A stretch of 64,000 nt of DNA from positions 129,798-193,797 of the forward strand of contig WOUP01000007.1 in assembly GCA_009772895.1 (NCBI GenBank), read 5' to 3'. How positions within the stretch are numbered: position 1 is the first letter of the stretch; every line of letters begins with the position of its first letter. Source of the DNA: Puniceicoccaceae bacterium 5H. Its GTDB lineage: Bacteria > Verrucomicrobiota > Verrucomicrobiia > Opitutales > Oceanipulchritudinaceae. The translations under genes were made by a program, and so were the position numbers. A model generated the notes under the pieces. That model made no database searches. It saw only the letters and a program-made list of their open reading frames with translations, and was not told the DNA's origin. Of the stretch, positions 1,639 through 56,033 are shown piece after piece.

Positions 1639-2154
1639 CTATACCCGCCACGCCGGAGCGTAAACGAGTAATCCGGGCGGCACGGTCACTTCTTCTCCGC
1701 CCCGCCAGATGGCCTGAAATGCGTCCCCGGCCTGGTATTGGTTCTCCCATTGCCAATGACAGGCGGGTTGGAAGCCAAAACGGGCGTAATACCCGGGCTC
1801 TCCCAGCACGACCACGAGGTCGGTTTCGGTGCGCGCGTAGTTGAGGGCCGACCAGACGAGTGCGGTGCCGACGCCCTGGCTTTGCCACGACGGGTCGATC
1901 GCCAGCGGCACGATCCCCAGGGCGGCTGCTTCGGGGCCCACGCGTTCGTGCCAGACAGGGCCCAGAGCCACCATCCCGACAATCGCCCCCTGGATGTTGG
2001 TGGCGACAAACTCCGAGACCACGTGGCCTGAGCGGCGGGCGGTGGCATGGCAGCGGGCCTCCTCTTCGGTTGGAAAAGCCGATAGCAGCAGCTCTTCAAT
2101 CTCACCGGCATCTTGAGGCTGTGCGGGCCGGATGCACACACAATATCCGCTCAT
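1639..2154 (-). CDS. GNAT-family N-acetyltransferase
   Basis: 171 aa. IRPAQPQDAGEIEELL N-terminus and an acetyl-CoA loop WQSQGVGTALV (Q/R-x-x-G-x-G/A). Confidence 0.75.
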   Translation of the reverse strand: MSGYCVCIRPAQPQDAGEIEELLLSAFPTEEEARCHATARRSGHVVSEFVATNIQGAIVGMVALGPVWHERVGPEAAALGIVPLAIDPSWQSQGVGTALVWSALNYARTETDLVVVLGEPGYYARFGFQPACHWQWENQYQAGDAFQAIWRGGEEVTVPPGLLVYAPAWRV

Positions 2155-2305
2155 CGTGATGCCATTATAGCGTTTGAAAGCGCCCTGTCTAGTGCCTGTC
2201 TGTCATTAAGATGGGGGTGAATGACCTCAGATTGCAATGACTGGAAGCGGCGCGCTTTAACCTTGAAGGAAAAGGACCGTAGCTTTCTATAGCCTACGCC
2301 TGATC

Positions 2306-4126
2306 ATGATTCGTCTATTGCTGCTGTTTTTTGTCGCTGTCATTTCCATCTGGATCGGCCAGTTTGCGCTATCGCCCGAAGCGAGCGTAGCGGCCTTCGC
2401 GGATTCGGTTTTCTATTCGTTGCTGGCCACGTTGATCTTGTTTGTCTTCTTCTGGATCCGGTTCGAACTGAAGGAAGGCGGTATTTTCACCAAAGCGTTC
2501 TGGCTGGAAAAGCAGCGGCAACGGAGGCTGGTTTTTGCCTTGTTGGCAGCTGTCGTTGGAACGATCTTCATCGCCCAGACTCAGGATTACGTCTTCAAAA
2601 CGGTGTGGGATGAGCACGTGATCGCCAATACTGCGCAGAATTTGCACCTTGAGCGTAAGGCTTACAATTCGGGGCGCGTCTTTTATCAGGATGTCCACCG
2701 TTACGTTCTGGGGCCATGGTATGATAAGCGCCCCGCAGGGTTTCCTTTCCTCGCAGCCTTGGCGGATGATATTCTGGGGTATAATCCAAAGCATACCATC
2801 CACCTGAACGCGGCGTTTTCCTTCGGGATCCTGTTTATGCTTGCGTTCATTCTGAGCGATCTGTGGGGCAAAAAAGCCGCAACCTTTGCGCTTGCCTGCT
2901 TTGTCGTTTCTCCCTTGTTCGCCAGCGAGGCCTCCAGTGGAGGAATTGCGATCTCATCGCTCTTTTGCGTCCTGGCCTTGATTTTATTGGCTGCGCGATG
3001 GTTGGAGCGTCCGAAGGACGGCGATGGGCTAAGTGCACTCGGATTCCTCGGGGTCTTTCTTGTTCAGACGCGTTATGAGTCCGCTCTCTATCTTGTCGGA
3101 CTTGGCCTTATTGTGCTCTGGGCCTGGTGGAAAGAGAGAAAGGTCGAGCCCCCATGGGCCGTCCTGCTCTGCCCAGTGCTCTTGATTCCCGTGCTTTGGC
3201 AGCACCATGTCATGACCATCGACCCTGCTCTTTGGGAGTTGAACACGGTTGGGAAAGATAAGGCCTTTAGCCTCGCCTATATCCCGGAGATGTTCTCCAA
3301 AGCCGTATTTTTCTTCTTCGATCCGAGTTCCAGCCGACCGAACCAGCTTTACCTGACTTCAGTGGCGATCATCGGCGCCGTTGGCCTGGCGGTACTGACG
3401 CCACGCAAAATCAGGCAATGGCAGTTCGCTTCGCCCCTCATGCGTTGTGTCGTCTTTTTCATTCCGGGGTTTCTGCTGAATCTGCTCATGTTGCTATGCT
3501 ATGCGTTCCCTTTGGATATGGAGATTACGAGTCGTCTTTCCCTGCCGCTGTTCTTGCCCATGGCAGTGCTCGCAGCGTGGTTTGCGGCTGAGGTCAACCA
3601 CCGGTGGGTACGAGGTGTTCTTTTCGGTGGTTTTGTGTTGTTTCTGTTCGTCTTTCAAATGCCCAAGTTCAACCAGAACAATTTCTACACTTCGGGCATG
3701 ATCGCCAATGTCTTCCTGAAGGCAGAAAAATACCTGCAGACGCAAGATCCAGGCAACGTCGTGTATGTGACCGGCAACGTACCGTTTTTTGACATCAATG
3801 GGTTTAGCGCCACTCCAATCGGAAGCCTGAATAAGCGGCAAAAGGAAACCAAATGGTTATTGGAGCAGTCGGAAAGACCCCAGCTTTTGCTTTTTTGCGT
3901 GGAGAGCTACAATCCCACGACGCGGGAATGGACGACCGCCTATGGCGACAAGACCATTACAGAGAATGCGGTGTTGAAAAAGATGTGGGAGGTGCGTCAG
4001 TTCCAGTTCTTCCGTGGGATCATTTACGAGATTGTCGATCTTGAAGGTGTGGACGCGAAAGAGCCCGAAAAGCCGATCGAAACAGAGGAAGACTACAAGA
4101 GCATTTACTACCATTCCCTGCCTTAG
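2306..4126 (+). CDS. Polytopic membrane protein, GT-C fold glycosyltransferase-like (ArnT/PMT_2-like)
   Basis: 606 aa with more than 10 hydrophobic segments. First-loop acidic motif WDEHVIANTAQNL and KRPAGFPFLAAL resemble GT39/GT83-type enzymes. C-terminal soluble domain of about 130 aa. The gene is visibly AT-richer than its neighbours. Confidence 0.55.
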   Translation: MIRLLLLFFVAVISIWIGQFALSPEASVAAFADSVFYSLLATLILFVFFWIRFELKEGGIFTKAFWLEKQRQRRLVFALLAAVVGTIFIAQTQDYVFKTVWDEHVIANTAQNLHLERKAYNSGRVFYQDVHRYVLGPWYDKRPAGFPFLAALADDILGYNPKHTIHLNAAFSFGILFMLAFILSDLWGKKAATFALACFVVSPLFASEASSGGIAISSLFCVLALILLAARWLERPKDGDGLSALGFLGVFLVQTRYESALYLVGLGLIVLWAWWKERKVEPPWAVLLCPVLLIPVLWQHHVMTIDPALWELNTVGKDKAFSLAYIPEMFSKAVFFFFDPSSSRPNQLYLTSVAIIGAVGLAVLTPRKIRQWQFASPLMRCVVFFIPGFLLNLLMLLCYAFPLDMEITSRLSLPLFLPMAVLAAWFAAEVNHRWVRGVLFGGFVLFLFVFQMPKFNQNNFYTSGMIANVFLKAEKYLQTQDPGNVVYVTGNVPFFDINGFSATPIGSLNKRQKETKWLLEQSERPQLLLFCVESYNPTTREWTTAYGDKTITENAVLKKMWEVRQFQFFRGIIYEIVDLEGVDAKEPEKPIETEEDYKSIYYHSLP

Positions 4127-5130
4127 GCCAGGCCGGGGGCTTCCTTGCGGTAGTGGGCGACCCATTGGGCGACGCCGGCTTCGGTCGGATGGTTTTCGGG
4201 CTGGTAGCCTAGGTCGCGCCGGGCGGCGGAGATGTCGAACCAGTGGTCCTTGGCCAGCTCGAGGGCGACGAAGCGCGTCATCGGGGGCTCGCCCTTGAGG
4301 CGAAGCGCCTGCCAGAGTTTTTCCGCCACCGCTCCGAGGTTGTAGGCCGTTTTGAGCGAGATGTGCCGCTTGAGCGGTGGGACGTCAAGGCGCTGCAGGA
4401 TGTCGTTGACCCAGGGCCAGAGCTGCACGGGCTCACCTTGGCTGAGGAAGTAGGCTTTGCCGCCCGCCCGCCCGGCTTGCAGGGCGTCGAGGGCTAGCAG
4501 GTGGGCGTCGGCGGCGTTTTCGACCCGGGTGATGTCGACGCGGTTCTGACCGTCGCCGACGATGCGCAGGCGGCCTTGCCGGGCGCGCTCGACGACACGC
4601 GGCAGTAAGTGGGGATCGCCCACGCCCCAGATCAGGTGGGGACGCAGCGCGCAGACCTCGACCTCACGGGCACGATGCGCGGCCAGCATCTCCTGCTCGG
4701 CGATGGCTTTGGTCTCCGCATAAGGGCCGAGCCAGCTGTGCCCGTAGGGCAGGGACTCGTCTGCCCCGGCGAAGGCCTGGCGGTTGAAGACGACGCTGGG
4801 CGTGCTGGTGTGGACGAGGTAGCGCACGTGGTGGTGGCGACAGGCCTGCAGCACGTGGCGGCTGCCCCGCACGTTGACGTCGAAATACGTCTCGTACGGG
4901 CCCCAGATGCCGGCGAGCGCGGCCACGTGAAAGACGGCGTCGCAACCGTAGACGGCGCGTTCGACCGCTTGCTGATCGGTCAGGCTGCCGCGCTGCACTT
5001 CCACTCCACGACCGGCGAGTTCGGGTGCGGCCGAGCGCTGAAAGATCGCCACCTCGTAGCCGCGTTCGAGACAGCGTTCGACAATGTAGCGGCCGAGGAA
5101 GCCGGCACCGCCCGTCACCAATACCTTCAT
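4123..5130 (-). CDS. NAD(P)-dependent epimerase/dehydratase, 3-beta-hydroxysteroid dehydrogenase/isomerase family
   Basis: MKVLVTGGAGFLGRYIV Rossmann motif, catalytic PYAETK (YxxxK), about 335 aa. Confidence 0.85.
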   Translation of the reverse strand: MKVLVTGGAGFLGRYIVERCLERGYEVAIFQRSAAPELAGRGVEVQRGSLTDQQAVERAVYGCDAVFHVAALAGIWGPYETYFDVNVRGSRHVLQACRHHHVRYLVHTSTPSVVFNRQAFAGADESLPYGHSWLGPYAETKAIAEQEMLAAHRAREVEVCALRPHLIWGVGDPHLLPRVVERARQGRLRIVGDGQNRVDITRVENAADAHLLALDALQAGRAGGKAYFLSQGEPVQLWPWVNDILQRLDVPPLKRHISLKTAYNLGAVAEKLWQALRLKGEPPMTRFVALELAKDHWFDISAARRDLGYQPENHPTEAGVAQWVAHYRKEAPGLA

Positions 5131-5180: not shown

Positions 5181-6833
5181 TTATTTGCCTCGCTGCAGGC
5201 GCCGCAGGTAGTGCACCCAGTCCTCGAGGGTGACCGGCGCCTGCCGGTAGCCGATGTGCCCGTCGGGGCGCACAAGCACCAGGCCGCTCTCCGGCAGCCC
5301 GAGGCGGTCGTGGATCTTTTCCCGTGGATCGCTGAAGATGGGGCAGGGCAGCTGACGCAGATCCACCGGGATGATGCGGCCGCAGACGAGGATTGGCTGC
5401 ACCCACTCCGGCAGGATGGAAGCTCGGGTCAGCTCTTTGATCGCGGTCGCCGTTTTGAGGTCGGCCTGCGTGCGCACGATGATGATCAGGGCCCAGAGGT
5501 GGGGCGTCAGCCATTCGCGCAGGCGCACGTGCCGGTTGCGGCGAAACTCGAGCAGATGGGAGTCGGGCAAGAGGTCGCCGGCGGTGGCCCCGTTTTTGAA
5601 GCGGCGTGCTTCGAGTGAGCGCAGGCGCTGCGAGCGCGTCTCCGCGTGGATAAAGTCGCTGCCCGGCACACTGGGCGCGGTTTCCAGATGCTCCAGAAAC
5701 TGCTGCCGCACCAGGTGGAGTCCGCTGATGGCGGGCAGGATCCAGTTGCGCAGACTGCGTTTGAGCAGGTTTTGGGTGCCGGCGAGCTGGCTGAGGTGGG
5801 CGGTAAAGCCCAGGGTGCGACGTGCGGCGGGCAGGCGCTCGCGCTCGTAGGTCTCGAGCAGGATGGGCGGCAGCTGGCCGCGTAGCACGGCGGCGAGTTT
5901 CCACGCGAGGTTGTAGGCATCCTGCACGCCCAGGTTCATGCCCTGGTTGCCCATGGCGGGCATCACGTGGGCGGCATCGCCGACGAGGATGACGCGGCCA
6001 CGCTGAAAGCTCTCGGCAATCGCGGGCTGGATGTCGTGCACGCGATTCCAGAGGATCTGCTTGATCCCGATCCAGCTCTGGACGCGTTCAGCAAACTGCA
6101 GTTCGGCCTGGTATTGCGAGGCCGGTGGCTCCCAGTCGTTCGCGACCTGCATCATGGCGCGATAGCGCCCATCGCCGAGGGGAAAGATCGCCGCGCCGCC
6201 CTCGGGATGGCAATAAATCTGCCACTGGTCGTCGGCCGGTCCCTGGCTCAGTTCGACATCGGCCACCCAGAGGCGCTCGGCGGGGCCGACCGGTTCCAGC
6301 GCCAGGTCGAGCAGCTCGCGCACGGTGGAATTGCGCCCGTCGCAGCCGATCAGGTATTCGGCGCCGATCAGACGCTCCTCGCCATCATTCTCGAGGATCA
6401 CTTCGAGGTGGTGCGGCTGGGTCTCATAGTCGTTGAGCTGCCACCCGCGCCAGATGCTGGCTCCGGCCCCGACGGCCGCGCGTTCGAGGATCTGCACCAG
6501 CACCTGTTGCGGCAAGTCGCGGATCTCGGGCCACGGGCTTTCGACGTCGGTCAGCTGGTGGGAAAACAGTTCGATATCCTGGCTGCGCACGTGGATCTCG
6601 CGGATCTGCTGACCATGTTGGCGCAGGTCGTCGCCGACGCCGAGGGAGGCGAGGATTTCCAGCATGCGGGAGTGCAGGGCCACCGCCTGACCGGTAGCGG
6701 GAATCTGAGCCTCTTTTTCGACGACCGCCACGCGAATGCCGGCACGGGCAAGGGCCAGGGCAAGCGACAGCCCCACCGGTCCGGCGCCGATGATGATGAC
6801 TTGCCAGTCTTTGCCGCTCTCTTCGCTTAACAT
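5181..6833 (-). CDS. FAD-dependent aromatic-ring monooxygenase (PheA/TfdB-like, FAD_binding_3)
   Basis: VIIIGAGPVGLSLALALARAG dinucleotide fold, GRVILVGDAAHVMPAMGNQGMNLGVQDAYNLAWKL motif, C-terminal LVLVRPDGHIGYR thioredoxin-like tail. Confidence 0.85.
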   Translation of the reverse strand: MLSEESGKDWQVIIIGAGPVGLSLALALARAGIRVAVVEKEAQIPATGQAVALHSRMLEILASLGVGDDLRQHGQQIREIHVRSQDIELFSHQLTDVESPWPEIRDLPQQVLVQILERAAVGAGASIWRGWQLNDYETQPHHLEVILENDGEERLIGAEYLIGCDGRNSTVRELLDLALEPVGPAERLWVADVELSQGPADDQWQIYCHPEGGAAIFPLGDGRYRAMMQVANDWEPPASQYQAELQFAERVQSWIGIKQILWNRVHDIQPAIAESFQRGRVILVGDAAHVMPAMGNQGMNLGVQDAYNLAWKLAAVLRGQLPPILLETYERERLPAARRTLGFTAHLSQLAGTQNLLKRSLRNWILPAISGLHLVRQQFLEHLETAPSVPGSDFIHAETRSQRLRSLEARRFKNGATAGDLLPDSHLLEFRRNRHVRLREWLTPHLWALIIIVRTQADLKTATAIKELTRASILPEWVQPILVCGRIIPVDLRQLPCPIFSDPREKIHDRLGLPESGLVLVRPDGHIGYRQAPVTLEDWVHYLRRLQRGK

Positions 6834-6897
6834 TGCCTAAATGCGTGGTGCATGAACCGGTTGCACTCAGTGTGCAGGAATATTCACGTTCACGCAA

Positions 6898-8517
6898 TCA
6901 CTCCTGCGTCTTTTCCAGCCGCACGTATTGGTAGGGGTGCCAGTCGAGCAGGTTGGCCTGCCAGCCGGAGACCTCCGGGCGGATGAGGTAGGCGGTCGTG
7001 TAGTGGTAGATCGGGATCATCACGGCCTGCTGCTCCAGCATGCGTTCGGCGGCCTCGTACTGGGCCTTGCGTTCGCTTGGCTCGCGCGTGGCCGCGGTGT
7101 CTTCGAGCAGGGTATCGTAATCGGCATTGCTCCAGTTACTGTAGTTGTTGCTGTGATGGCTGGTCCAGATCTCGAGAAAGGTTTGCGGCGAGACGTAGTC
7201 GCCGATCCAGACCGCACGGGCGATGGCGAAGTCGCCCTGGCTACGGCGAGCGTAGTAGGTCTTGGCCTCGACGTTGGTCAGCCTTACGTGGATGTTGTAG
7301 GCTTGCTGCCACATGTTCTGCACGGCTTCGGCGATGCGCTGGTGCGTCTCGGAGGCATTGTAGACCAGTTCCAGTTCCGGGAAGCCCGCACCGTCCGGGT
7401 AACCGGCTTCGGCCAGCAGTTCGCGTCCCTGTTCGATCGTGGGCAACGGCTCGTGCACCTCCAGCAAGCGCTCGGGCGTGAACTGGGTCGCCGGTTGCTG
7501 CCCGCCCTGCAAGAGGCGGTCGGTGATGGCCTCGCGGTCGATGGCGGCACTCAGGGCGCGGCGCACGCGCGGGTCGCCGAGCGGCTCGACCGTGTGGTTG
7601 AGCAGGTAGTAATAGGTGCCCAGGTAAGGGTCGACGCGCAGCACCTCGGGCTCGTTTTCCCGGTAAAACGGCACGCGCCGGGGCGGCAGGGCCTCCGTCA
7701 CGTGCAACTGGCCGGCCTGAAACGCGCGCTCTTCGGTGTTGAGGTCGGTGATGGGAAAAAAGCGCACGCCCTGGAGCGTCGTGACGGTGTTGTTCCAGTA
7801 GTGCGGGTTACGTTCGACCGTGATGCGCTCGTTGGGGCGCCATTCGGTCAAGCGAAAGGGCCCGTTGCTGACCATCTGCCCCGGGCGCGCCCAGTCGTCC
7901 TGTCGCGTAAAGGCATCGCCCGCTGCCTCGACGCTGGCACGATTGAGCGGGGCGAAGCTGGGGTGCATCAACAGCTCGAGAAAATAGGCGACGGGATGGT
8001 CGAGGCGCACCTGCAGCGTGCGCGCATCCAGCGCCTTGACGCCGATGCTCGCCGGATCGTCCGTCTGGCCGGTGTGGTAGGCCTCCGCGCCCTCGACCAC
8101 GTAGAGCATGGCGGCGTTGCCCGCGGCCACGGCAGGCGTCAACAGGCGGCGCCAGGCAAAGACGAAGTCGTCGGCGGTGACAGGTTGGCCGTTGGACCAC
8201 TGGGCGTTGGGGCGCAGGTGAAAGGTGTAGGTGCGGCCGTCGGCAGAGATCTCCCAGCTCTTGGCCACGCCTGGCTGCGGGCTCAAGTCGCCCGGGTCGG
8301 GTGCGGTCAGCCCCTCCCACAACGCCAGGTGCACGTTGAGGGCGTTGGCGCTGGTCGAAAGCTGCGGGTCGAAGGACTCCGGCTCCGGGCCCGTGCCGAC
8401 GAGCAGGAAGCCCTCTTGTGCCGCCGTCTCCACCTCGGAGGCGCGACGGCAGGCCGTGAGCCCCAGGAGCAGGCCTAGCGTGAGTCCGATCAGGCAACGT
8501 AGCCACCATTTACGCAT
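6898..8517 (-). CDS. ABC transporter substrate-binding lipoprotein, family 5 (peptide/nickel, OppA/DppA-like)
   Basis: 539 aa with lipobox LGLTAC. Length and sequence (VAKSWEISADGRTYTFHLRPNAQWSNG) are typical of SBP_bac_5. No permease or ATPase genes are nearby (orphan SBP). Confidence 0.85.
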   Translation of the reverse strand: MRKWWLRCLIGLTLGLLLGLTACRRASEVETAAQEGFLLVGTGPEPESFDPQLSTSANALNVHLALWEGLTAPDPGDLSPQPGVAKSWEISADGRTYTFHLRPNAQWSNGQPVTADDFVFAWRRLLTPAVAAGNAAMLYVVEGAEAYHTGQTDDPASIGVKALDARTLQVRLDHPVAYFLELLMHPSFAPLNRASVEAAGDAFTRQDDWARPGQMVSNGPFRLTEWRPNERITVERNPHYWNNTVTTLQGVRFFPITDLNTEERAFQAGQLHVTEALPPRRVPFYRENEPEVLRVDPYLGTYYYLLNHTVEPLGDPRVRRALSAAIDREAITDRLLQGGQQPATQFTPERLLEVHEPLPTIEQGRELLAEAGYPDGAGFPELELVYNASETHQRIAEAVQNMWQQAYNIHVRLTNVEAKTYYARRSQGDFAIARAVWIGDYVSPQTFLEIWTSHHSNNYSNWSNADYDTLLEDTAATREPSERKAQYEAAERMLEQQAVMIPIYHYTTAYLIRPEVSGWQANLLDWHPYQYVRLEKTQE

Positions 8518-9788: not shown

Positions 9789-9864
9789 GGGGCTGTAGCT
9801 CAGTTGGAAGAGCGCTACAATCGCACTGTAGAGGTCGTCGGTTCGATTCCGATCAGCTCCACCA
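9789..9864 (+). tRNA. tRNA-Ala (anticodon CGC)
   Basis: 76 nt, GGGGCTGTAGCTCAGTTGG...GGTTCGATTCC...CAGCTCCACCA. Cloverleaf folds by hand. Anticodon loop AT-CGC-AC, G3:U70 alanine identity pair, encoded CCA. Confidence 0.95.
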
Positions 9865-15146: not shown

Positions 15147-15911
15147 ATGCTGACTGCCGAACGTAAACGCATGATTCTCAATCTGCTGAAGGCCGAAGGT
15201 CAGGTGCAGGCCGACAAACTGGCCCGCCGCTTCAAGGTCTCGGAAGACACCATCCGCCGAGACCTGCGTCAACTGGCAAAGGAGGGGCTGCTGGAGCGCG
15301 TGCATGGAGGTGCGCTGTTGCGGCCTCCCGTCTGTGGCCTGTATGCCAAACGCGAACACCAGTCGCCGGATGCCAAGCGCGCGATCGGGGCGGCGACGGC
15401 GGCACTCTTCCAACGCGGGCAGACGGTGGCGATCGACGCGGGCACGACGCCGCTGGCCGTAGCCGAAGCGCTTTCCAATACACTGCCGCTTTCGGTGGTG
15501 ACGCACAGCCTGCCCGTCGGTCTGGCCTTGTGCGAACATCCAGCAGTGGAGGTGTTGATGCTGGGGGGCACTCTCTTCAAGCAGGCGCGTGCGTGCGCGG
15601 GCGCGGAGACGGTGGACGCCTATCGCCGGATTCACGCCGACTTCTGCGTGCTGGGGCTGGCGGGGTTGCACCCGGAGGCCGGTGCCACGACCTTCGACCC
15701 GGAGGAGGCGCTGGTAAAACGGGCGATGATCCAGAATGCGGGCGCGGTGGTGGCAGTGGCCGCCCCGGAAAAGCTGGGCACGATTGCGCCGCACCTGCTG
15801 GCCCCCGCTGATCGGTTGACGCATCTGGTGACGGGCCCGGCGCCGGAGGAGCAACTGGAGCCGTTTCGCACGCTCGGGGTCAACGTGATCGTCGCCGGAG
15901 CGGGTAACTGA
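15147..15911 (+). CDS. DeoR-family transcriptional regulator
   Basis: MLTAERKRMILNLLKAEGQVQADKLARRFKVSEDTIRRDLRQLAKEGLLERVHGGA HTH plus a DeoR C-terminal sugar-phosphate sensor domain. Start moved to ATG 15147. Confidence 0.85.
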   Translation: MLTAERKRMILNLLKAEGQVQADKLARRFKVSEDTIRRDLRQLAKEGLLERVHGGALLRPPVCGLYAKREHQSPDAKRAIGAATAALFQRGQTVAIDAGTTPLAVAEALSNTLPLSVVTHSLPVGLALCEHPAVEVLMLGGTLFKQARACAGAETVDAYRRIHADFCVLGLAGLHPEAGATTFDPEEALVKRAMIQNAGAVVAVAAPEKLGTIAPHLLAPADRLTHLVTGPAPEEQLEPFRTLGVNVIVAGAGN

Positions 15912-16142
15912 GGGGGCGTGCCCGTTAGTGATTGCAGCTCCGCAGGTTGGAGAGGATTGTTTTTACAATGAAGTGCCATTAAATTTCCGAATTCCCTTCA
16001 AATGCAGTTGCAACCGACGATAGAGTGATGGAAGTGACACACCCGTGTGGCCACACCGCTCGCCCCAGCCCGGAGTTGCTGGCCGACGGCTCTTAGATTT
16101 ATCTCCTCACGTATCGCGCCAATTTAGTCAGGACCGCCTCTC

Positions 16143-16727
16143 ATGAACATCCTCGTTGCCGAAGACGATTTCATCTCGCGCAAGCTGCTGACCAATATCC
16201 TGGAAGAGCTTGGGCACGAAGTGACTGCGGCCGAAGACGGCGAAGAAGCCTGGCGCCTCTACCAGACCGTCCCGACCCGCCTCGTCGTGAGCGACTGGCT
16301 GATGCCCAAGATGGACGGCATCGACCTGGTGAAGAAGATCCGCGGCCACCCGAAGTCCGACTACACCTACGTGATCATGCTCACGGCCAACGTCGGCCAG
16401 CGGGAGAACTACTTCAAGGCCATGGACGCCGGCGTGGACGACTTTCTGACCAAGCCGCTCGACCGTATCCAGCTCACCATCCGCCTCAAGGTGGCCGAGC
16501 GCATCCTGCGTGCGACCTCGCGCATCCACTCGCTCGAAAACGTGCTCACGATCTGCGCCTACACGAAGAAGATCAACTTCCCCGAAGAGGGCTGGCAGAC
16601 CATCGAAGAGTTCATGCAAAAGCACTTCGGCATCACCGTCTCGCACGGGATCGAACCGAATTATTACGAGCAGGTCATCAAGCCCCAGATCGAGCAACTC
16701 AAGGTTGCCCGCACCAACGACACCTGA
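16143..16727 (+). CDS. Response regulator (REC) with short C-terminal Cys-depleted ICxxCKKI-like module
   Basis: REC motifs ILVAEDD, VVSDWLMPKMDG, MLTAN, KP. C-terminus LTICAYTKKINFPEEGWQTIEEFMQKHFGITVSHGIEPNYY. Confidence 0.85.
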   Translation: MNILVAEDDFISRKLLTNILEELGHEVTAAEDGEEAWRLYQTVPTRLVVSDWLMPKMDGIDLVKKIRGHPKSDYTYVIMLTANVGQRENYFKAMDAGVDDFLTKPLDRIQLTIRLKVAERILRATSRIHSLENVLTICAYTKKINFPEEGWQTIEEFMQKHFGITVSHGIEPNYYEQVIKPQIEQLKVARTNDT

Positions 16728-16759
16728 CCGCAGCGCGTCGACAAAATGGCAGCACCCGC

Positions 16760-16792
16760 AGGCGTCGGCACAGGCTGACGCCTCGTTTGTGT
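16760..16792 (+). terminator. Possible intrinsic terminator after the response regulator
   Basis: Stem aggcgtc/gacgcct (16760-16766 / 16777-16783) followed by cgtttgtgt (interrupted U tract). Confidence 0.35.
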
Positions 16793-16917
16793 ACCGACGC
16801 AGGCGCGGGGCGGGGCGGAGGAGGAGGTATTGTTCACAGAAAAGGGCAGGCACAAAAAGGACAGGGCGTATATTCTTTCGGCTTTACCTTGTTAACGTTA
16901 TTTAAGATAACGGTATC

Positions 16918-18351
16918 ATGGACAAGAAAATAGATGCATTGAACAATCAAACGCTGAACTATGGCCCTATTGAGTCTTTCGATCAGGACTTGCTAGATCT
17001 ACACACTTTTGCAGACAGGCTGGAATCATTTATCCGAGTGGAGCACCTGTTTGTGGGGGATGGTCTCGTGTTAGGACTCAATGCACCTTTTGGCCACGGG
17101 AAGACGACATTCCTCAATATGTGGGAGGATCGTTTGAAGAAGAGGCGCAAGGCCGATCCAAATGAGGGCGACGTCTCCACTCCAACTCCTATGGTCATTC
17201 GGGTGAACGCTTGGCAGTCGGATTATCTGAGTGATCCCCTGTGTGCAATCGTAAGTAAGATTATAGAGGAGTTGAAAGAAGAGGGGCACAATAATGGTCA
17301 AGTGAACGAGATCTCTAAGGCTTTTAAAAAAATGGGCTGGTTTGGTTTAGCCATTGGTGGCCAGATTGTACAAAAGGTGACCGGCATCAACGCGATTGAA
17401 GCAGGGGAAGTTGCAGAGAAGCGTGTGCAGAGTGGAAATGATGAAAATCAGGAATCGAATCCGTTCGATGTTTTTCAGGCTAGACAAAGGGCAATGGGAG
17501 AACTGAAGGCCGCGTTAAGTGATGCCTTTCAAGGCAAGGAGCCAACTGTCTATATCTTAGTTGATGAATTGGATCGGTGCCGCCCTGATTATGCCATCAC
17601 GTTTCTGGAGACCATAAAGCACATTTTCGACATCCGGGGTTTGGTTTTTGTGTTGGCTGTAGATCGCGATCATCTTGAAGTGTCCGCGAAGGCGGCTTTT
17701 GGGCGTGGACTGAATTTCGATGAATACTACCGAAAGTTTCTGCAGCGCGAAGTTAACTTACCGAAAATGTCTGATAAAGGTAATAAGCGGATGATCGATC
17801 AGTTCATTGATAAATATGTGAAAGTAATAGATCGAAGGGTTTGCTGTGCCGACATTAAAGAAGCGATGAATGATGGCTTGTATGGCTTTCTTCATCATGC
17901 CTCATTAACTCCTCGGCAACTCACGGAAATGTTCCGTATTTTGGGTCATATTCTGGCGCGAAACAGGGAGGAGTCGATGTGGATGTTGCACAATATAGCG
18001 CAAGTGACTGTCATAATGTCAGCTTTAAGGTTTGTTAATTCAACATGGTACGAAGGTTTGGCTAATGGTGGGCTCAGTGAGGATGATGTAATAGGAGCCG
18101 TTAAAAAATACTTTGATGAAGATATTCAGAATGAATGGCTAACTTTCTTCTTTGGAGGCTACTGCTTGGTCGTCGACCAGAAAGCTGATTATGCAGGTTT
18201 CATGGGTAAAGCGGGTGAGGAAATTGGTGATCCTCCTGCCGGTGGATGGTCTTCGCATTTGCGTTCGAGTGGCCAGTGGGGGCGGTCTTATATCAATTGG
18301 TTTAGCAGGGTGCGTCATTGCATTGAGGAACTTGAGCAAATGAGTGCCTAA
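16918..18351 (+). CDS. KAP-family P-loop NTPase
   Basis: Walker A LNAPFGHGKTTFL. KAP-type Walker B region VYILVDELDRCRPDYAITFLETIKHIF. Helical C-terminal half. A/T-ending codon usage unlike all neighbours. Confidence 0.85.
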   Translation: MDKKIDALNNQTLNYGPIESFDQDLLDLHTFADRLESFIRVEHLFVGDGLVLGLNAPFGHGKTTFLNMWEDRLKKRRKADPNEGDVSTPTPMVIRVNAWQSDYLSDPLCAIVSKIIEELKEEGHNNGQVNEISKAFKKMGWFGLAIGGQIVQKVTGINAIEAGEVAEKRVQSGNDENQESNPFDVFQARQRAMGELKAALSDAFQGKEPTVYILVDELDRCRPDYAITFLETIKHIFDIRGLVFVLAVDRDHLEVSAKAAFGRGLNFDEYYRKFLQREVNLPKMSDKGNKRMIDQFIDKYVKVIDRRVCCADIKEAMNDGLYGFLHHASLTPRQLTEMFRILGHILARNREESMWMLHNIAQVTVIMSALRFVNSTWYEGLANGGLSEDDVIGAVKKYFDEDIQNEWLTFFFGGYCLVVDQKADYAGFMGKAGEEIGDPPAGGWSSHLRSSGQWGRSYINWFSRVRHCIEELEQMSA

Positions 18352-18367
18352 GCTTGATCTCGGACTG

Positions 18368-18410
18368 ATGGAGACGTCGAGGCCCAGCAGGTCCCTCCAT
18401 TTTTCTTTTT
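18368..18410 (+). terminator. Intrinsic terminator after the KAP NTPase gene
   Basis: atggagGAC...GTCcctccat imperfect stem (18368-18400) followed by ttttcttttt. Confidence 0.5.
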
Positions 18411-18432
18411 GTGGATTCTGTGTCTTTTGTGG

Positions 18433-18970
18433 CGAACCCCTGATGCTTTGCTGCTAGCAGGCGACGATGGCACCCCTTCAGGGTGCTTATGGGGCGTGGG
18501 CTTATCCGGGGGTCTTCGCTACGCTCGACGCCCCGGCTACGTTATGCGACCCCTCCGGGGTCGGATTGCTGCTCGACGGGCGTTGGTGAGCGGAAGGCTA
18601 TCCGGGGGTCTTCGCTGCGCTCGACACCCCGGCTACGTTATGTGACCCCTTCGGGGTCGGAGTGCGGGTCGGTGGGCGTTGGTGAGCGGAAGTGGCGGGG
18701 GTTGGTGCTGGAGCTGGCACCCACTTCGGGGTGCGCTGGCGGAGGTGGTTGGTTCCGGTGGTGTCAGCCGCCAAGGCGGCTTCAACCACCGGCGATAGGC
18801 GGTGACCCCTTCGGGGTCGGCTATGGGGTCGGGTGCTGGTGAGCGGCACGGTGAGCAAGCTGAAGGCTTGCCATATCGTAGCCGGTGGTTGAGCACGCGC
18901 AGCGGGCGACACCACCGGTAGGCGTGCCCCCGCGGCGGCACCTTGAAGAGGTGCCAGAACGGTGCGCTAC
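18433..18970. repeat. Block of stacked GC-rich hairpin repeat modules (same family as 174-388), bracketed by a 17-nt imperfect direct repeat
   Basis: Hairpins: gcaccccttcagggtgc (18470-18486); GACCCC-TTCG/TCCG-GGGTC at 18548-18562, 18644-18658 and 18804-18818; CCGGTGGT...ACCACCGG at 18755-18792 and 18882-18918; gcaccttgaagaggtgc 18938-18954. Flanks: TTCTGTGTCTTTTGTGG (18416-18432) vs TTCTGTGCCTTTTGTGA (18971-18987), 15/17 identical. Confidence 0.8.
18503..18694. repeat. Tandem duplication, 2 x 96 bp (about 87% identical by hand alignment), inside the hairpin block
   Basis: Unit 1 (18503-18598) starts tatccgggggtcttcgctacgctcgacgccccggctacgttatgcgacccctccggggtcgg. Unit 2 (18599-18694) starts tatccgggggtcttcgctgcgctcgacaccccggctacgttatgtgaccccttcggggtcgg. 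A third partial copy is at 18801-18846. Confidence 0.85.
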
Positions 18971-19057
18971 TTCTGTGCCTTTTGTGATCCAAGCGCGCCC
19001 CCGCTTTCGCGTGTCTTCTGCGTGGCCATTGGTGGAAAAAGCCTCAAGCTGTGGGGG

Positions 19058-19879
19058 ATGCGTTGGAAGTGCACCGTCGCGTATGACGGGACCGATTTCG
19101 AGGGCTGGCAGTCACAGCCGAGCAAGAATACCGTGCAGGACCACCTGGAGCGACGGCTTGCGTTTCTGTTCAAGCGGGACGTGCGCGTGCATGGCTCGGG
19201 GCGGACGGATAGCGGGGTCCACGCCAACGCGCAGGTGTTCCACTTCGACGGCGAGTGGAAATGGGCGCCGGAGGACTTGCTCAAGGCGCTGCGCGTGGGC
19301 TACCCGGACTCGATCCAGGTCTACCGGGCGGAGCGGGTCAGCGACGACTTCCACGCGCGCTTTTCGGCGGTGGGCAAGCGCTACGTCTACCACTTTTACG
19401 AGGGCTTTGCCGGGCCGTTCGATTACCGCTGGCATTGGTCGCTGGGCCATTGGCGGCTCGACCTCGACCGGGTGAACGAGGCGGCGCAGCAACTGATCGG
19501 CAAACACGATTTCGCGCCCTTCAGCGCCAATCCGCGCGACGGGCGCGAGGAGAGCACGGTCAAGGATCTGCGCCGGCTGGAAGTGGTGCGCAACGGGCGA
19601 CACCTGACCCTGGTGACGGAGGCCTCGGGCTATTTATTCCGCATGGTGCGCAGCCTCGCGGGCTGCCTGGTCAATGTCGGCATCGGTCGCCTGAGTCAGG
19701 ACGACCTGCGCGAGATCCTCGAATGCGGCGTGCGCACCGAGCGTGTGGTGACGGCGCCCGCGCGGGGCCTGTTCCTCGACCGCGTCTATTACGAAGGCCA
19801 CGATACGCCCGATCCCGACCCGACCAAAATCGTCTTCGGCGGCCCCGCGCACAGTCCGTGGCAAGGAGAGGGCAGGTGA
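19058..19879 (+). CDS. truA: tRNA pseudouridine(38-40) synthase TruA
   Basis: MRWKCTVAYDGTDFEGWQSQP..., catalytic GSGRTDSGVHA, 273 aa. The track start 18962 runs into the repeat block and is rejected. Confidence 0.9.
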   Translation: MRWKCTVAYDGTDFEGWQSQPSKNTVQDHLERRLAFLFKRDVRVHGSGRTDSGVHANAQVFHFDGEWKWAPEDLLKALRVGYPDSIQVYRAERVSDDFHARFSAVGKRYVYHFYEGFAGPFDYRWHWSLGHWRLDLDRVNEAAQQLIGKHDFAPFSANPRDGREESTVKDLRRLEVVRNGRHLTLVTEASGYLFRMVRSLAGCLVNVGIGRLSQDDLREILECGVRTERVVTAPARGLFLDRVYYEGHDTPDPDPTKIVFGGPAHSPWQGEGR

Positions 19880-19971: not shown

Positions 19972-20676
19972 ATGAAACGCGTGCATTTCGGATCGGCAGT
20001 CTTGATTCCCGGGTTGTGGTGGCTGTGCGGTTGCTCGTCGCCCGGGCCTGCTTTCTTCCAGGATGCCGGGGACCCGTCGGCCGACCGCTACCGCTATACG
20101 CGTGACTCTCAAGCGGTGGCAGGCGTGGGGGAGCCAGCCTACTTCTGGCAGGCTTACGATGCCGCGACGGATGAGTCTGGCAAGAAGAGGATACGCAACG
20201 AGGTCACCTGGGAATTGATCCGCAAAGTCGACGTCGGTTTTACCAACTACGTGCGGGAACTGCGGGGAGGCGACGCCGCGATCTCCCTCAGCTCCGATCT
20301 GATCGTGTTGGGCACGAGCGCGACTTCGACGGCGGTGGGGGCGGCGAGTACCAAGACCGTTTTTTCGGGCATTACCACATTCGTGTCGGGCAGCAAGGCC
20401 GCTTACGAAACGACGGTCAACCGCGACCAGGTGATCGAGGTGCTGGTGCTCAAGATGCTGGAAATGCGTGCCCTGAAGCTGCAGGAAATCAGCGAGCAAC
20501 TGAGCGAAAGCACCGACGCATATCCGCTGACCCGCGCGGTGGCCGATGTCGCGCAATATTACCAGATCGGTTCTACTTCGTTTGCGTTGGCCAACCTCTA
20601 TCAGCAGCAGGCGACGCAGACGCATGACGCCTTGGAGGCCTCACGTGTGCGAGCGCCGGCGGAAGATCAGCGGTAG
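19972..20676 (+). CDS. Hypothetical lipoprotein
   Basis: Signal peptide plus lipobox (LWWLCGCSS), high GC3, no recognisable domain. The 3' end overlaps the convergent NhaC gene by 36 nt. Confidence 0.6.
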   Translation: MKRVHFGSAVLIPGLWWLCGCSSPGPAFFQDAGDPSADRYRYTRDSQAVAGVGEPAYFWQAYDAATDESGKKRIRNEVTWELIRKVDVGFTNYVRELRGGDAAISLSSDLIVLGTSATSTAVGAASTKTVFSGITTFVSGSKAAYETTVNRDQVIEVLVLKMLEMRALKLQEISEQLSESTDAYPLTRAVADVAQYYQIGSTSFALANLYQQQATQTHDALEASRVRAPAEDQR

Positions 20677-22260
20677 CGTGAAGATGATGACGGCGATGAT
20701 CGCGAGGCTGCCGTAGGCATTGGTCCAGCCGCGTCCAACGGGCCAGTAGCCGACCAGGGCGGCCAGCGAGGCGGCGATCAGGGCGTAGGGCATTTGGGTG
20801 CGCACGTGCTCGACCGGCTCTACGCCGCAGGCGATGGACGACATGATGGTGGTGTCGCTGAAGGGGCTGCAGTGGTCGCCGAAGACGGCTCCGCCAAAAA
20901 CCGCGCTGACCACGGCGGCGAGCAAGGTCCCGAGGTCGGCGCACTCGGCGGTGATGTCGAAGGCGCTGACGGCGGGCAGGGCGAGCGGCATGAGCAGGGC
21001 CATCGTGCCCCAGGCGCTGCCGGTCGAAAACGAGATGAACGCGCCGGTCAGAAACACCGCGAGCGGCAGGTAGCCGACCGGCATGTTGCCCTCGAGCACC
21101 TGCGCGATGGCGTCGGCGGCGTCGAGCGCACTGATGACGCTGCCGATGATCCAGGCCGCCATCAGGATGAGCAGCGGGGCGGCCATGTTGCGTGCGCCCT
21201 GAAAAAAGATGTGCGCCGCGCTCGGCTGGCCCTCGCGCCGGGGAAAGAGCAGGAAGGCAGTCAACAGGCCCGGCAGGCTGCCCAGCACGAGGATCAGCGC
21301 GCCCTGTTCGCTGCCAAAGGCAAGCGCCAGCTTGTGGGGCGTGACCGGCCAGAGCGGGCGGGCTTCCCACACGTAGTAGAGCCCCATGATGCCGAGCACG
21401 AGCATGGCGAGGGGCAGGAGGGTGCTCCAGACCGAGCCGGCGGGACCGTCTTCCGTCACGGCTTCGGCCGGGGTATCGTGGGCCTCCAGGCGCGCCCGGC
21501 GTTCGGCGGCGCCCATCGGGCCGATATTCCAGTTGCGCCAAATGCTCCAAACCATGAGCAGCAGGGTGGCGAGCACGTAAAAATTGGTGGGGATGGACGC
21601 GAAGTAGAGCTCGGTCGGCGTATAGCGATCGAGCATGCCCAGCTCTCCCAGGCCGCTCTGGATCAGGGTCAGCTGGGTGGCGATCCATGTGGAGATAAAG
21701 GCGATGCAGGCCACGGCCGAGCTGGTGCTGTCGGCCAGGTAGGCCATCTTTTCGGCCGAGACGCCCGAGGGCTTGGCGAGGGAACGCGTGACGCGACCGA
21801 TGAGCAAGGCGTTGGCCAGGCCATCGAAAAAGCAGACGAAGCCGAGTGCGATGGTCGCCATCTGCAGGTTGCGCGCGTGGTTGGTGCCGCGCTCGAGCAG
21901 CTTGCTCACGATGGTGCGCATGCCGCCACTGGCCTCGATCAGCGCCGCAAAGCCCCCGAGCAGCAGGCTGAAGAGGATCGCCCCCTGGTTCCACGAGCTG
22001 GTGAAGGCTGGCGCCAGGTGCGTAACAGGCAGCGACCACGCCGCCGTGAGCGGATTGCCCCCGTGCAGGAGCAGCGCCCCGGCAAAGGCGCCCGCCAGCA
22101 GGCTGACGATGACGCGGCGCAGCAGCCACACCCCCACCAGGCCTACTGCGGTCGGCCACAGCGCGCGCCAGGGGGATTCGACCAGCAACAGGAAGTAGGA
22201 GCCCGCAGCCGCAGCAAGCAGGTAAAGAATGAGGGTGAGCCGGTGACGAGTCTGCGCCAT
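20641..22260 (-). CDS. Na+/H+ antiporter, NhaC family
   Basis: 539 aa with about 12 TM segments and NhaC-like segments (GGMRTIVSKLLERG, FFDGLANALLIGRV). Its ATG directly abuts the stop of the upstream methyltransferase (TAAATG). Confidence 0.85.
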   Translation of the reverse strand: MAQTRHRLTLILYLLAAAAGSYFLLLVESPWRALWPTAVGLVGVWLLRRVIVSLLAGAFAGALLLHGGNPLTAAWSLPVTHLAPAFTSSWNQGAILFSLLLGGFAALIEASGGMRTIVSKLLERGTNHARNLQMATIALGFVCFFDGLANALLIGRVTRSLAKPSGVSAEKMAYLADSTSSAVACIAFISTWIATQLTLIQSGLGELGMLDRYTPTELYFASIPTNFYVLATLLLMVWSIWRNWNIGPMGAAERRARLEAHDTPAEAVTEDGPAGSVWSTLLPLAMLVLGIMGLYYVWEARPLWPVTPHKLALAFGSEQGALILVLGSLPGLLTAFLLFPRREGQPSAAHIFFQGARNMAAPLLILMAAWIIGSVISALDAADAIAQVLEGNMPVGYLPLAVFLTGAFISFSTGSAWGTMALLMPLALPAVSAFDITAECADLGTLLAAVVSAVFGGAVFGDHCSPFSDTTIMSSIACGVEPVEHVRTQMPYALIAASLAALVGYWPVGRGWTNAYGSLAIIAVIIFTLPLIFRRRSHT

Positions 22261-23028
22261 TTACGCGTCTTGCTCTCGGCGACGCCAGATGCTGGCCTGA
22301 GCGACCGACCACTGGTATTTGCGGCGGTGCTCCCGGATGATGAAGGGCAGATCCTTCGTCTCGACCAGCTCGAAGTGGGGCGCGAGGGCTTCCTGCAGCG
22401 CTTCGAGCGGTTCTCCGGTTTCGGGCGTCGCGCCGAGCCAGTATTCCTTGGCGGTAAACGACTCCAGCCACGTATTGGGCGTGGTGATGACGAGTTGCCC
22501 GCCGGGGTTGACCAGGCTGGGCAGGCGCTCGAGCAACAGCTGCGGGCGCGGCAGGCGGCAGAGGAGGTTGCAGGCCAGCACCACGTCGAAGCTGCCCAGG
22601 TCGGGCCGCAGGCGCTGGGCGTCCCCCTGCTCGAAGCGCACGCGAGAGCAGGGCACATCCGGCAGGCGCGCGGTGTGGGTGGTATAGATACTGCCGGTCT
22701 CGACCACCTCGTATGGCAGCTCCTTGTCGCGGCACAGCGTGCGGGCCGCAAAGATGAAGGTATAGGAAAAGTCGATGCCGATGACCGCGTGACAATGGCG
22801 CGCCAGCTCGAAGGTGCTGCGGCCTACAGCGCAGCCGAGGTCGAGGGCGGTGGCGTTTTCGGGCAGCGCGGCTGTATCGACGCACTCCGTCACGCAACGC
22901 AGGGGGAAGTCCAGCGCGCTGGCGGGGCCTTCCTTCCAGGGCAGCTGTTCTACGGGGTCGCCGTAATGGAAGAGCAGATACTGACTCAGCAGCTCATCGG
23001 TTTCATAGACATTTGCATCGGACGCCAT
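22261..23028 (-). CDS. Class I SAM-dependent methyltransferase, OvoA C-terminal-like (putative 4-mercaptohistidine N1-methyltransferase family)
   Basis: YETDELLSQYLLFHYG N-terminus, SAM motif I LDLGCAVGRSTFELA, later GGQLVITTPNTW. The subfamily call is from memory of the TIGR04345-type pattern. Confidence 0.7.
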   Translation of the reverse strand: MASDANVYETDELLSQYLLFHYGDPVEQLPWKEGPASALDFPLRCVTECVDTAALPENATALDLGCAVGRSTFELARHCHAVIGIDFSYTFIFAARTLCRDKELPYEVVETGSIYTTHTARLPDVPCSRVRFEQGDAQRLRPDLGSFDVVLACNLLCRLPRPQLLLERLPSLVNPGGQLVITTPNTWLESFTAKEYWLGATPETGEPLEALQEALAPHFELVETKDLPFIIREHRRKYQWSVAQASIWRRREQDA

Positions 23029-53773: not shown

Positions 53774-53799
53774 TCCGCATCCCGCACGCTTCGCTTTAC

Positions 53800-53829
53800 G
53801 GCGCCCGGCTTCGATCGGGCGCCTTTTTT
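53800..53829 (+). terminator. Rho-independent terminator after clpB
   Basis: ggcgcccg-gcttcgat-cgggcgcc followed by TTTTTT. Confidence 0.75.
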
Positions 53830-53940
53830 GTAGCTGGAATATTCCCCATGGGTGGAGCCGTATGCCCCGGGGAATTGCCCTTGAACGCCCGCTACACCCC
53901 GCGTAGTGATGAGGTAGATTTGCCTGTGCCCGAACGAGAA

Positions 53941-54486
53941 ATGAAAGCCCCCCTGCGATTGCTCGCGTTGTCCGGTAGCCTGCGACAGCGGTCTTACAAC
54001 ACGGCGGCGCTCGAAGCGCTGGCCGTCTTGGTCCCGGCGAGGGTCGAAGTGGAAGTTTTCCGAGGGCTCGGCGAGCTGCCGCTCTTCAATCCCGACCTCG
54101 AGGGGCAGCACGTTCCGGCGTTCGAGCGGCTGCGTGCTGCTGTAGGTCGGGCGGATGGGCTCATGATCGCCAGCCCCGAATACGCGCACGGCATCACCGG
54201 CGTGCTCAAGAATGCCCTCGATTGGCTGGTGAGCGGCGAGGAGTTCATCCACCAGCCGGTGATGCTGATCAATACCTCACCGCGGGCCACACATGCCCTG
54301 GCGGCATTGCGGGAAGTGGTGACCACGATGTCCGGCGTGGTGGTGGAAGAGGCGAGAGTTGCCATCCCGTTGCTGGGGAGTGGTCTGGATCGGGACGGCA
54401 TTCTTGCCGATCCGGCGATCACGGCGGCTCTGCGCGAAGGCATCGTCCATTTCACCGAAGCGATTCTTTGTTTACAGTCAGAATAA
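53941..54486 (+). CDS. NADPH-dependent FMN reductase family protein
   Basis: MKAPLRLLALSGSLRQRSYN..., IASPEYAHGITGVLKNALDW. The track ORF start 53602 lies inside clpB and is rejected. Confidence 0.8.
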   Translation: MKAPLRLLALSGSLRQRSYNTAALEALAVLVPARVEVEVFRGLGELPLFNPDLEGQHVPAFERLRAAVGRADGLMIASPEYAHGITGVLKNALDWLVSGEEFIHQPVMLINTSPRATHALAALREVVTTMSGVVVEEARVAIPLLGSGLDRDGILADPAITAALREGIVHFTEAILCLQSE

Positions 54487-54562
54487 GCGCAGTTGCCTGT
54501 ATTTAAGAAGTTACAACCAGGTTTAAATCCTTATAAATAGGTTTATATTGCATAAAGAAAAA

Positions 54563-54590
54563 GCCCCAGCAGACTGCTGGGGCTCGTTTC
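54563..54590. terminator. Hairpin terminator (U tract better on the minus strand)
   Basis: gccccagca-gac-tgctggggc. Flanked by aaagaaaaa on the left and tcgtttcg on the right. Confidence 0.5.
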
Positions 54591-54860: not shown

Positions 54861-54885
54861 AAACCCTCCAATTGCGGAGGGTTTT
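54861..54885. terminator. Bidirectional intrinsic terminator downstream of the OYE gene
   Basis: aaaccctcc-aattgc-ggagggtttt. Confidence 0.65.
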
Positions 54886-54920
54886 GCCTGCTATCTTTTG
54901 GGCTATGGTGAAGGCCGGCC

Positions 54921-56033
<1,113 letters not shown>

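Follow-up and report, generated by a model that had tools for sequence, protein, structure and literature searches.

Transmembrane (TM) helices have been described for many, but not all, members of the KAP family of P-loop nucleoside triphosphatases (NTPases) (PMC13001434). PifA, the protein through which the F plasmid excludes phage T7, is described as a KAP protein that lacks such helices and aborts T7 infection with membrane leakage, and Tmn, of the YobI family, exports Mg2+ and carries a TM hairpin inserted in its P-loop domain (both PMC13001434). QatA is soluble, binds single- and double-stranded DNA and forms heptamers or octamers (PMC13279940), and RdrA, the defence ATPase of RADAR, forms heptameric rings (PMC9994260). 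Stand-alone KAP proteins of other architectures, namely EF_KAP and three proteins from gut metagenomes, protect E. faecalis in a Walker-B-dependent and non-abortive manner (PMC13552941); like Tmn, they are P-loop NTPases that confer immunity as single genes and need their Walker motifs to protect. The PADLOC collection also lists single-gene phage defence candidates, of which PDC-S20 is one, and such PDC entries are unvalidated candidates (PMC11514479). Here we describe a KAP-family gene in a stretch of 64,000 nucleotides from Puniceicoccaceae bacterium 5H (contig WOUP01000007.1, positions 129,798 to 193,797; the whole stretch is called the window below, and all coordinates are its own). The gene is the only one on a foreign insert that a near-identical strain lacks, and it probably encodes a protein that by itself gives immunity to phages or other mobile elements.

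The insert and the parts of its gene are arranged as follows.

16852-18462, no strand: insert carrying the KAP gene only, 1,611 bp, GC 0.459, absent from a 99.8%-identical strain.
16846-16851, no strand: left 6-bp direct repeat GCAGGC at the insert junction, taken from the junction sequences, with one copy in the empty allele.
18457-18462, no strand: right 6-bp direct repeat GCAGGC, read from the sequence.
16918-18351, forward strand: KAP-family P-loop NTPase gene, 477 amino acids, with PF07693, PDC-S20 and phrog_8614 matches and an AlphaFold2 model.
17092-17109, forward strand: Walker A, GHGKTT, residues 59-64, with G59, G61 and K62 invariant across 120 family members.
17293-17418, forward strand: conserved helical insert between Walker A and Walker B, residues 126-167, with AlphaFold2 helices at 126-155 and 159-167.
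17554-17589, forward strand: Walker B and KAP signature, ILVDELDRCRPD, residues 213-224, with E217, D219, C221, P223 and D224 invariant in 120 sequences.
17941-18348, forward strand: all-helical C-terminal domain, residues 342-477 (136 residues), with modelled helices within 358-471.

An earlier note on this DNA had judged by eye that the gene is conspicuously AT-rich, with A/T-ending codons unlike those of its neighbours. Sliding-window and codon calculations bear this out. The G+C content (GC) of the gene is 0.458 and its GC at third codon positions (GC3) is 0.481, against GC3 values of 0.74-0.89 in ten neighbour genes, and the lowest 1-kb GC value of the entire window (0.444, z = -4.75) falls inside it. 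A two-change-point likelihood fit delimits an AT-rich segment at 16828-18430, with a GC of 0.456 compared with 0.632.

An allele without the insert came to light through an exact-protein look-up for contigs that encode a response regulator identical to the left-hand neighbour of the KAP gene. Six contigs encode this regulator. On four of the five shown the KAP gene is present and 100% identical to that of the window; the fifth (L131; Logan SRR14569808, a metagenome contig of 1,165 nt) is the empty allele, which aligns to window positions 15711-16851 and then diverges, its last 24 nt being identical to 18463-18486. Because L131 joins position 16851 directly to position 18463, the KAP islet is a clean 1,611-bp presence/absence polymorphism, and against the window minus 16852-18462 the contig shows 2 mismatches in 1,165 nt. 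The same sample yielded a truA contig (L220) that encodes an identical TruA protein, and the exact-protein look-up lists no full-length KAP gene from it. The empty allele supports recent gain or loss of the insert. Taken with the GC3 values and the change-point fit, it identifies the KAP gene as foreign and horizontally acquired, in agreement with the earlier proposal of a recent acquisition between the response regulator and truA; the insert-free arrangement predicted there does exist, with a native hairpin-repeat block still lying between regulator and truA.

The gene is likewise not a core gene at this position. In addition to L131, it is missing from the loci of truA and response-regulator relatives: no KAP homolog lies near truA at any of 16 loci checked (L004-L019, TruA 41-68% identical, mostly Opitutales/Puniceicoccales), and no KAP gene lies near the regulator's relatives at seven metagenome loci (57-78% identity). 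Neither set could serve as a source of empty sites, since the 16 truA loci, from species-representative genomes, have none of the window's neighbour genes and the seven metagenome loci have no synteny to the window. As the earlier note had remarked, nothing that would mobilise the gene accompanies it: Pfam annotations reveal no recombinase, integrase or transposase within about 10 kb on either side of the insert. A tRNA integration site was rejected, the only tRNA (9789-9864) being about 7 kb from the islet, and no RNA family scored above threshold in 16000-19500.

The reading frame is intact, and both of the motifs for which it had first been singled out, Walker A and the KAP Walker B block (ILVDELDRCRPDYAITFLETIKHIF, beginning at residue 213, nt 17554), can be read from its translation. 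The protein matches the Pfam KAP_NTPase profile (PF07693) with an E value of 5.6e-35 and 121.4 bits, far above the cut-off of 20 bits (residues 31-341 on profile positions 4-285 of 293), and it carries the GxxGxGKT motif and the DELDRC-RPD signature of the KAP family. The best PDC-S20 model, PDLC04959, matches at E 1.4e-65 and 220.6 bits; residues 11-407 align to model positions 6-382 of 464, which covers 81% of the model and 83% of the KAP protein. Three further PDC-S20 models match with E values of 1e-36 to 1e-41, and phrog_8614, a family of function unknown, matches with an E value of 5.8e-54.

Relatives of the protein are numerous and distant. A search of 5.8 billion clustered proteins returned 2,252 matches, the best of which, besides a fragment of the same protein, are 38-46% identical; the named sources include Planctomycetes, Gammaproteobacteria and Opitutales metagenome bins as well as Deferribacter, Desulfopila, Methylophilus and Gimesia. 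A profile search run exhaustively over 1.84 billion representatives gave 21,136 proteins at E <= 1e-3, of which 3,674 reached E <= 1e-30, and family members are spread over many phyla. Among the best 150 relatives about 125 are full length (about 435-500 residues, one of 557) and about 25 are fragments, so the PDC-S20-type family looks uniform in architecture and free of domain fusions. In plasmid and phage collections the only KAP relatives are distant ones (24-35% identity), and IMG/VR holds 73 with the ELDRCRPD motif, the best of them 34% identical. In the family alignment of 120 sequences the window protein keeps all 51 invariant columns, which it does by construction, as well as 110 of the 135 positions at which conservation among its homologs reaches 90%.

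The AlphaFold2 model, built from the same alignment, has a mean predicted local distance difference test (pLDDT) score of 86.3 and a predicted template modelling score (pTM) of 0.85, and consists of three parts: the P-loop core, a helical insert between Walker A and Walker B, and an all-helical C-terminal domain. The interval between the two Walker motifs is modelled as helices 107-121, 126-155, 159-167 and 182-204, with residues 169-176 disordered. Within the family the insert is strongly conserved, with the consensus AAKDxGWFxTAIGGQIVxKxTGIDAVAAGxLAEKKK. The C-terminal domain (342-477) has no Pfam match. Only one weak hydrophobic stretch had been noticed at the outset, where a TM insert might have been expected, and a soluble variant had been suggested. 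The hydropathy scan confirms the former and, like the model, fits the latter: no TM helix is found, the highest Kyte-Doolittle value of any 19-residue window being 1.33, and the insert between the Walker motifs, at 1.05, is too low for a membrane span and is modelled as soluble-type helices.

When the model was compared with the PDB by Foldseek, the top 15 matches were all RdrA, the RADAR ATPase (E 1.6e-5 to 7e-4, template modelling score (TM-score) 0.29-0.41), followed by the AAA+ rings ORC, FtsH and p97. Among predicted viral structures the top match is a KAP protein of a giant virus. A sequence search of the solved structures gave only chance-level P-loop matches to TsaE.

Set beside the described systems, the window gene is closest to PDC-S20, with which it agrees in size class, single-gene architecture and profile match. 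The stand-alone character extends to the locus itself, since the insert consists of one gene and neither the window nor eight homolog loci have a neighbour in common. Within this family the protein forms a divergent branch, about 39% identical to members that share about 56% identity among themselves, and it differs from other PDC-S20 proteins in three ways: its N-terminus is extended by 15 residues, the loop that follows the P-loop helix is longer, and the C-terminal domain is modified. Judged by sequence, the window gene is a divergent addition to an already catalogued family of defence candidates.

PifA resembles the window protein in its KAP domain, in its lack of TM helices and in being a single protein in conflict with phage. 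The window protein is nevertheless about 240 residues shorter, its C-terminal domain is unrelated, and membership was rejected on the ground that the match is confined to the NTPase domain (model positions 9-258 of 720, residues 16-286, PADLOC E 8.8e-18). QatA too has its KAP domain in common with the window protein (PADLOC QatA E 1e-13, NCBIfam QatA E 7.7e-17). The protein is not a QatA, however: the NCBIfam match reaches 61.2 bits against a cut-off of 600 and the QatA C-terminal domain is lacking. Nor is the locus a QatABCD system, as no qatB, qatC (QueC-like) or qatD (TatD) gene is nearby and the neighbours are the response regulator and truA. Being soluble, DNA-binding and oligomeric, QatA is a plausible working model for the window protein.

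The best solved structural match is RdrA (PDB 8hr8, 8fnu and 8fnt; Foldseek E 1.6e-5, probability 1.0, TM-score 0.37-0.41), at about 12% sequence identity and a root-mean-square deviation (rmsd) of 11-13 A, and RdrA is a protein of about 800-850 residues. RADAR membership was rejected: there is no gene for the RdrB deaminase in the insert or its flanks and no PADLOC RdrA match at E <= 0.1. EF_KAP, compared by description only, has two TM helices and a C-terminal region of 322 residues, whereas the window protein has no TM helix and a helical C-terminus of 136 residues. Membership of Tmn was likewise rejected, with no Tmn model among the PADLOC matches at E <= 0.1 and no TM helix.

The genomic surroundings of homologs were read at eight loci.

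L141, Desulfopila: neighbours GmrSD, a TIR protein, HNH and UvrD.
L136, Methylophilus: neighbours putAbiC, RelA_SpoT and an IS21 element.
L140, Gimesia: neighbours an IS3-family transposase and a SUKH protein.
L142, contig of 6.9 Mb: neighbours IS91 elements, integrases, a group II intron reverse transcriptase and RelE.
L216, Deferribacter: neighbours F-type tra genes, SocA_Panacea and Bro-N.
L217, contig of 2.2 Mb: a PhdYeFM/YoeB pair among housekeeping genes.
L132, Opitutales: fumarase and GH43, with AbiEii, PIN and PemK nearby.
L218, contig of 139 kb: an adjoining contractile-injection-system cluster, with no defence gene seen.

No partner gene is conserved across these loci. The homologs lie mostly among defence genes, toxin-antitoxin pairs or mobile-element genes, and in six of the eight loci the homolog gene has a higher AT content than the DNA on either side of it. 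At L142 the homolog (P0027, 8001-9461) begins 97 nt downstream of a gene for a hybrid histidine kinase/response regulator (5823-7904). This echoes the response regulator of the window, and the other homolog loci suggest a coincidence.

The idea put forward in the earlier note, that the islet is a single-gene defence element, thus gains support from the PDC-S20 match and from the defence and mobile-element genes that abound around its homologs. We consider it probable that the gene encodes a stand-alone immunity protein with a role in defence against, or exclusion of, phages or other mobile elements. According to the model that we propose, an acquired segment of 1,611 bp would provide this verrucomicrobial chromosome with one intact, presumably cytoplasmic KAP NTPase of the PDC-S20 family. 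The protein would first assemble into a ring, by analogy with the heptamers of RdrA and the heptamers or octamers of QatA. In an NTP-driven switch, the C-terminal helical domain, the conserved insert or both would then recognise a phage-derived protein or nucleic acid, and hydrolysis dependent on Walker A and Walker B would block infection, by remodelling or trapping a nucleoprotein complex of the invader, by draining NTP, or by a PifA-like disturbance of the membrane. Oligomeric state, trigger and effector step are all points that we infer from the comparison with described systems, and any one specific effector step is, taken singly, unlikely at best. A more daring version, which we regard as speculative and improbable, makes the conserved insert between Walker A and Walker B the effector of a self-sufficient KAP immune protein of about 450 residues, which would act from an ATP-driven ring on the membrane or as a nucleic-acid clamp and would have spread as recombinase-free single-gene cassettes of about 1.6 kb with 6-bp junction repeats.

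Several observations weigh against an immune function or against parts of the argument for it. The window protein is a divergent outlier, 39% identical to relatives that are 56% identical among themselves, and it departs from highly conserved positions at 25 places (among them G105S, Q336T, G354M, W358H, G363V, W406E, G416C and W475M), many of which lie within the C-terminal domain or shortly upstream of it; an altered or relaxed function is possible. It has no recognisable effector domain, its C-terminal 136 residues being the part that matches nothing in Pfam, and its structural similarity to RdrA is modest at the rmsd given above. No neighbour within about 10 kb has a specific PADLOC match, so the KAP gene does not sit in a defence island. 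Neither the label PDC-S20 nor a phenotype for it was found in the searchable literature, and PMC9252829 contains no definition of PDC systems. Finally, the empty allele is a single short contig that extends only 24 nt past the junction, and it fits either an insertion at this site or a microhomology-mediated deletion in the other strain. The foreign composition of the insert argues that its DNA was acquired at some point, whichever of the two events made the polymorphism.

Two other explanations fare about equally well, and both are improbable. The first is that the gene is cargo or a relic of a mobile element, such as an exclusion or maintenance NTPase of a plasmid, an integrative and conjugative element or a prophage in the manner of PifA, left as a single gene after recombination. 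One homolog does lie inside a conjugative element beside TraU, TraN and TrbC (L216) and another among IS91 elements, integrases and a group II intron (L142); the window protein matches a PHROG family, KAP relatives number 73 in viral contigs of IMG/VR, and the insert itself combines a foreign composition with clean indel borders. Yet the window has no other mobile-element gene within about 10 kb, the insert amounts to exactly one gene, and the plasmid and phage collections contain no close members of the family, their matches reaching only 24-35% identity. This explanation moreover overlaps with defence, as the exclusion of competitors is immunity too.

The second is that the gene is a decaying or neutral hitch-hiker, an intact recent arrival for which selection on the family function has gone. 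The 25 changes among 135 highly conserved positions would fit such a history, as would a singleton lineage, whose closest relative in about 15 billion proteins does not exceed 42% identity, and the dispensability implied by an allele without the gene. Decay is harder to reconcile with a full-length reading frame, with the retention of every Walker and KAP signature residue and of the other 110 conserved positions, and with an AlphaFold2 model that is confident throughout the core; dispensability and patchy occurrence, for their part, are typical of working defence genes. We therefore doubt this reading, though no more than the preceding one.

A partnership with the upstream response regulator, in which the KAP protein would be a host signalling or housekeeping NTPase serving as its output or scaffold, draws on the same-strand position of the gene 190 nt downstream of a receiver-domain protein and on the L142 homolog directly downstream of a hybrid histidine kinase/response regulator, but it is contradicted because the identical regulator exists unchanged without the KAP gene in L131, and with the regulator being native (GC3 0.877) and followed by its own terminator-like hairpin (16760-16783), its relatives of 57-78% identity not followed by a KAP gene and the other seven homolog loci devoid of a two-component neighbour, we give it hardly any credence.

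Copies of a short sequence lie at and near the ends of the insert.

16851-16864, reverse strand: 14-mer CTGTGYCTTTTGTG, left-terminal inverted copy with 2 mismatches, from a pattern scan.
18418-18431, forward strand: copy of the 14-mer, 31 nt inside the right end of the insert, from repeat and pattern scans.
18973-18986, forward strand: 14-mer, third copy, lying in native DNA some 70 nt before the ATG of truA, from repeat and pattern scans.

The GCAGGC pair at the junctions may be either a target-site duplication or microhomology, and a perfect 10-nt palindrome (CTGCTAGCAG, 18451-18460) overlaps the first four bases of the right copy. No terminal inverted repeats are present at the exact ends of the insert; the left-terminal 13-14 nt recur, inverted and imperfect, 31 nt in from the right end. 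The 16-nt sequence TTCTGTGYCTTTTGTG forms a direct repeat at 18416-18431 and 18971-18986, with 15 of 16 positions matching. The 14-mer has 3 matches in 64 kb, all within a 2.1-kb region, against 0.56 expected, for a pattern that was itself derived from two of the copies. These copies could be vestigial inverted repeats together with a preferred target, a shared regulatory motif, or chance. Set against the terminal inverted repeats and target-site duplication expected of a transposon or of a cassette like a miniature inverted-repeat transposable element, the insert shows 6-bp repeats at both junctions, an imperfect inverted copy of the 14-mer but no exact terminal inverted repeats, and no transposase nearby.

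The remaining features of the insert and its native flanks are these.

16143-16727, forward strand: response-regulator receiver protein, native left neighbour, GC3 0.877, with a receiver domain.
16887-16921, forward strand: imperfect inverted repeat over the start codon, with 15-nt arms at 16887-16901 and 16907-16921 that are 80% complementary.
18369-18410, forward strand: weak stem and T-run (ATTTTTCTTTTT), inside the insert and past the stop codon, a possible weak terminator.
18463-18960, no strand: GC-rich hairpin-repeat block, native, from the insertion site to truA, defined by repeats, folds and the entry of L131 into the block.
18962-19879, forward strand: truA, tRNA pseudouridine synthase, native right neighbour identified by Pfam, with a likely start ATG at 19059.

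The palindrome that had been seen just before the ATG and proposed as an operator does exist, but one base from where it had been placed: its core, AACGTTAT/ATAACGGT, occupies 16894-16914 and ends 3 nt, not 4, before the start codon of the KAP gene. The surrounding repeat (16887-16921) overlaps a weak sigma-70-like match. An operator is not borne out, since the fold lies within the range of shuffled sequences (z = -1.6; 13 of 200 shuffles fold equally well) and no equivalent repeat is conserved upstream of the eight KAP homologs. The terminator claimed for the right border fared no better. It comes down to a weak stem with a T-run behind it; 18352-18415 folds no better than shuffles do (z = +1.13) and a scan for terminator consensus made no call, so that it has no statistical support.

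The hairpin-repeat block to which that border had also been assigned is real, but it is not part of the islet. Because the allele without the gene runs straight into it, the block is native DNA that lies outside the insert. It contains two tandem 96-nt units (18503-18596 and 18599-18692) that are 90% identical and fold at -54 and -48 kcal/mol, along with related hairpins, and a common core, GACCCCTYCGGGGTCGG, recurs at 18548, 18644 and 18804. The block looks like a repetitive extragenic palindromic (REP)-like element; Rfam gives no significant match for it. Assemblies break within it, contigs L001 and L129 ending at 18533 and L220 starting at 18901. Adjoining the block, 18878-18956 belongs to an 82-nt stretch with an 86.6% identical inverted copy at 308-388 on the reverse strand, 18.5 kb away, and the hairpin core recurs in degenerate form at 172-188, so that this repeat family occupies dispersed sites in the genome.

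In the response regulator the receiver domain occupies residues 3-115 and is followed by about 75 residues with no Pfam match, which may be an uncharacterised output domain. Its relatives are encoded in 524 metagenome stretches, and the top matches align over nearly the full length. Two contigs that cover this region (L002, from ENA ERZ27245736, and L003, from JGI 3300013021) have their left ends at 15960/15961 and their right ends inside truA. That the left ends agree to within 1 nt, in the intergenic region between a DeoR gene and the response regulator, hints at a strain-variable junction or a repeat near 15960.

Elsewhere in the window, a methyltransferase gene of native composition (22261-23028, reverse strand; 255 residues, S-adenosylmethionine-dependent) matches PADLOC mad2 of the MADS system (E 2.1e-20, model positions 284-437 of 492); most likely this is a generic match to a methyltransferase domain and the gene is not a defence gene. 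A second low-GC stretch at 2000-4250 (GC about 0.53, z about -2.5) contains an open reading frame (ORF) on the forward strand (2306-4126) for a PMT_2-type membrane glycosyltransferase of 606 residues, probably an exchangeable envelope-glycan gene, with genes for a GNAT acetyltransferase and for an NAD-dependent epimerase/dehydratase flanking it. A mild dip in GC at 54000-55250 (about 0.55, z about -2.0) overlaps ORFs at 53602-54486 (forward) and 54921-56105 (reverse). The forward-strand gene at 19972-20676 encodes a 234-residue protein with a lipoprotein-like N-terminus (…LWWLCGCSS…) and no Pfam match, and its 3' end overlaps by 36 nt the 3' end of a convergent Na+/H+ antiporter gene (20641-22260, reverse strand).

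KAP proteins without TM helices, such as PifA, and single-gene KAP defence were already known, and the islet is less new than the earlier note had judged; it opens no new category, stand-alone KAP defence proteins having been demonstrated in other architectures. Its interest lies with PDC-S20, a widespread bioinformatic candidate (3,674 representatives, many phyla) for which there is no published test. The locus offers an unusually clean natural case of this family, with borders resolved to the base pair, a near-isogenic allele without the insert and no confounding partners. As a clean single-gene insert with such an allele, it would be a good construct with which to ask if, and by what means, a KAP NTPase that has neither TM helices nor an obvious effector immunises on its own, and it adds a small data point on how single defence genes may move without a recombinase of their own.

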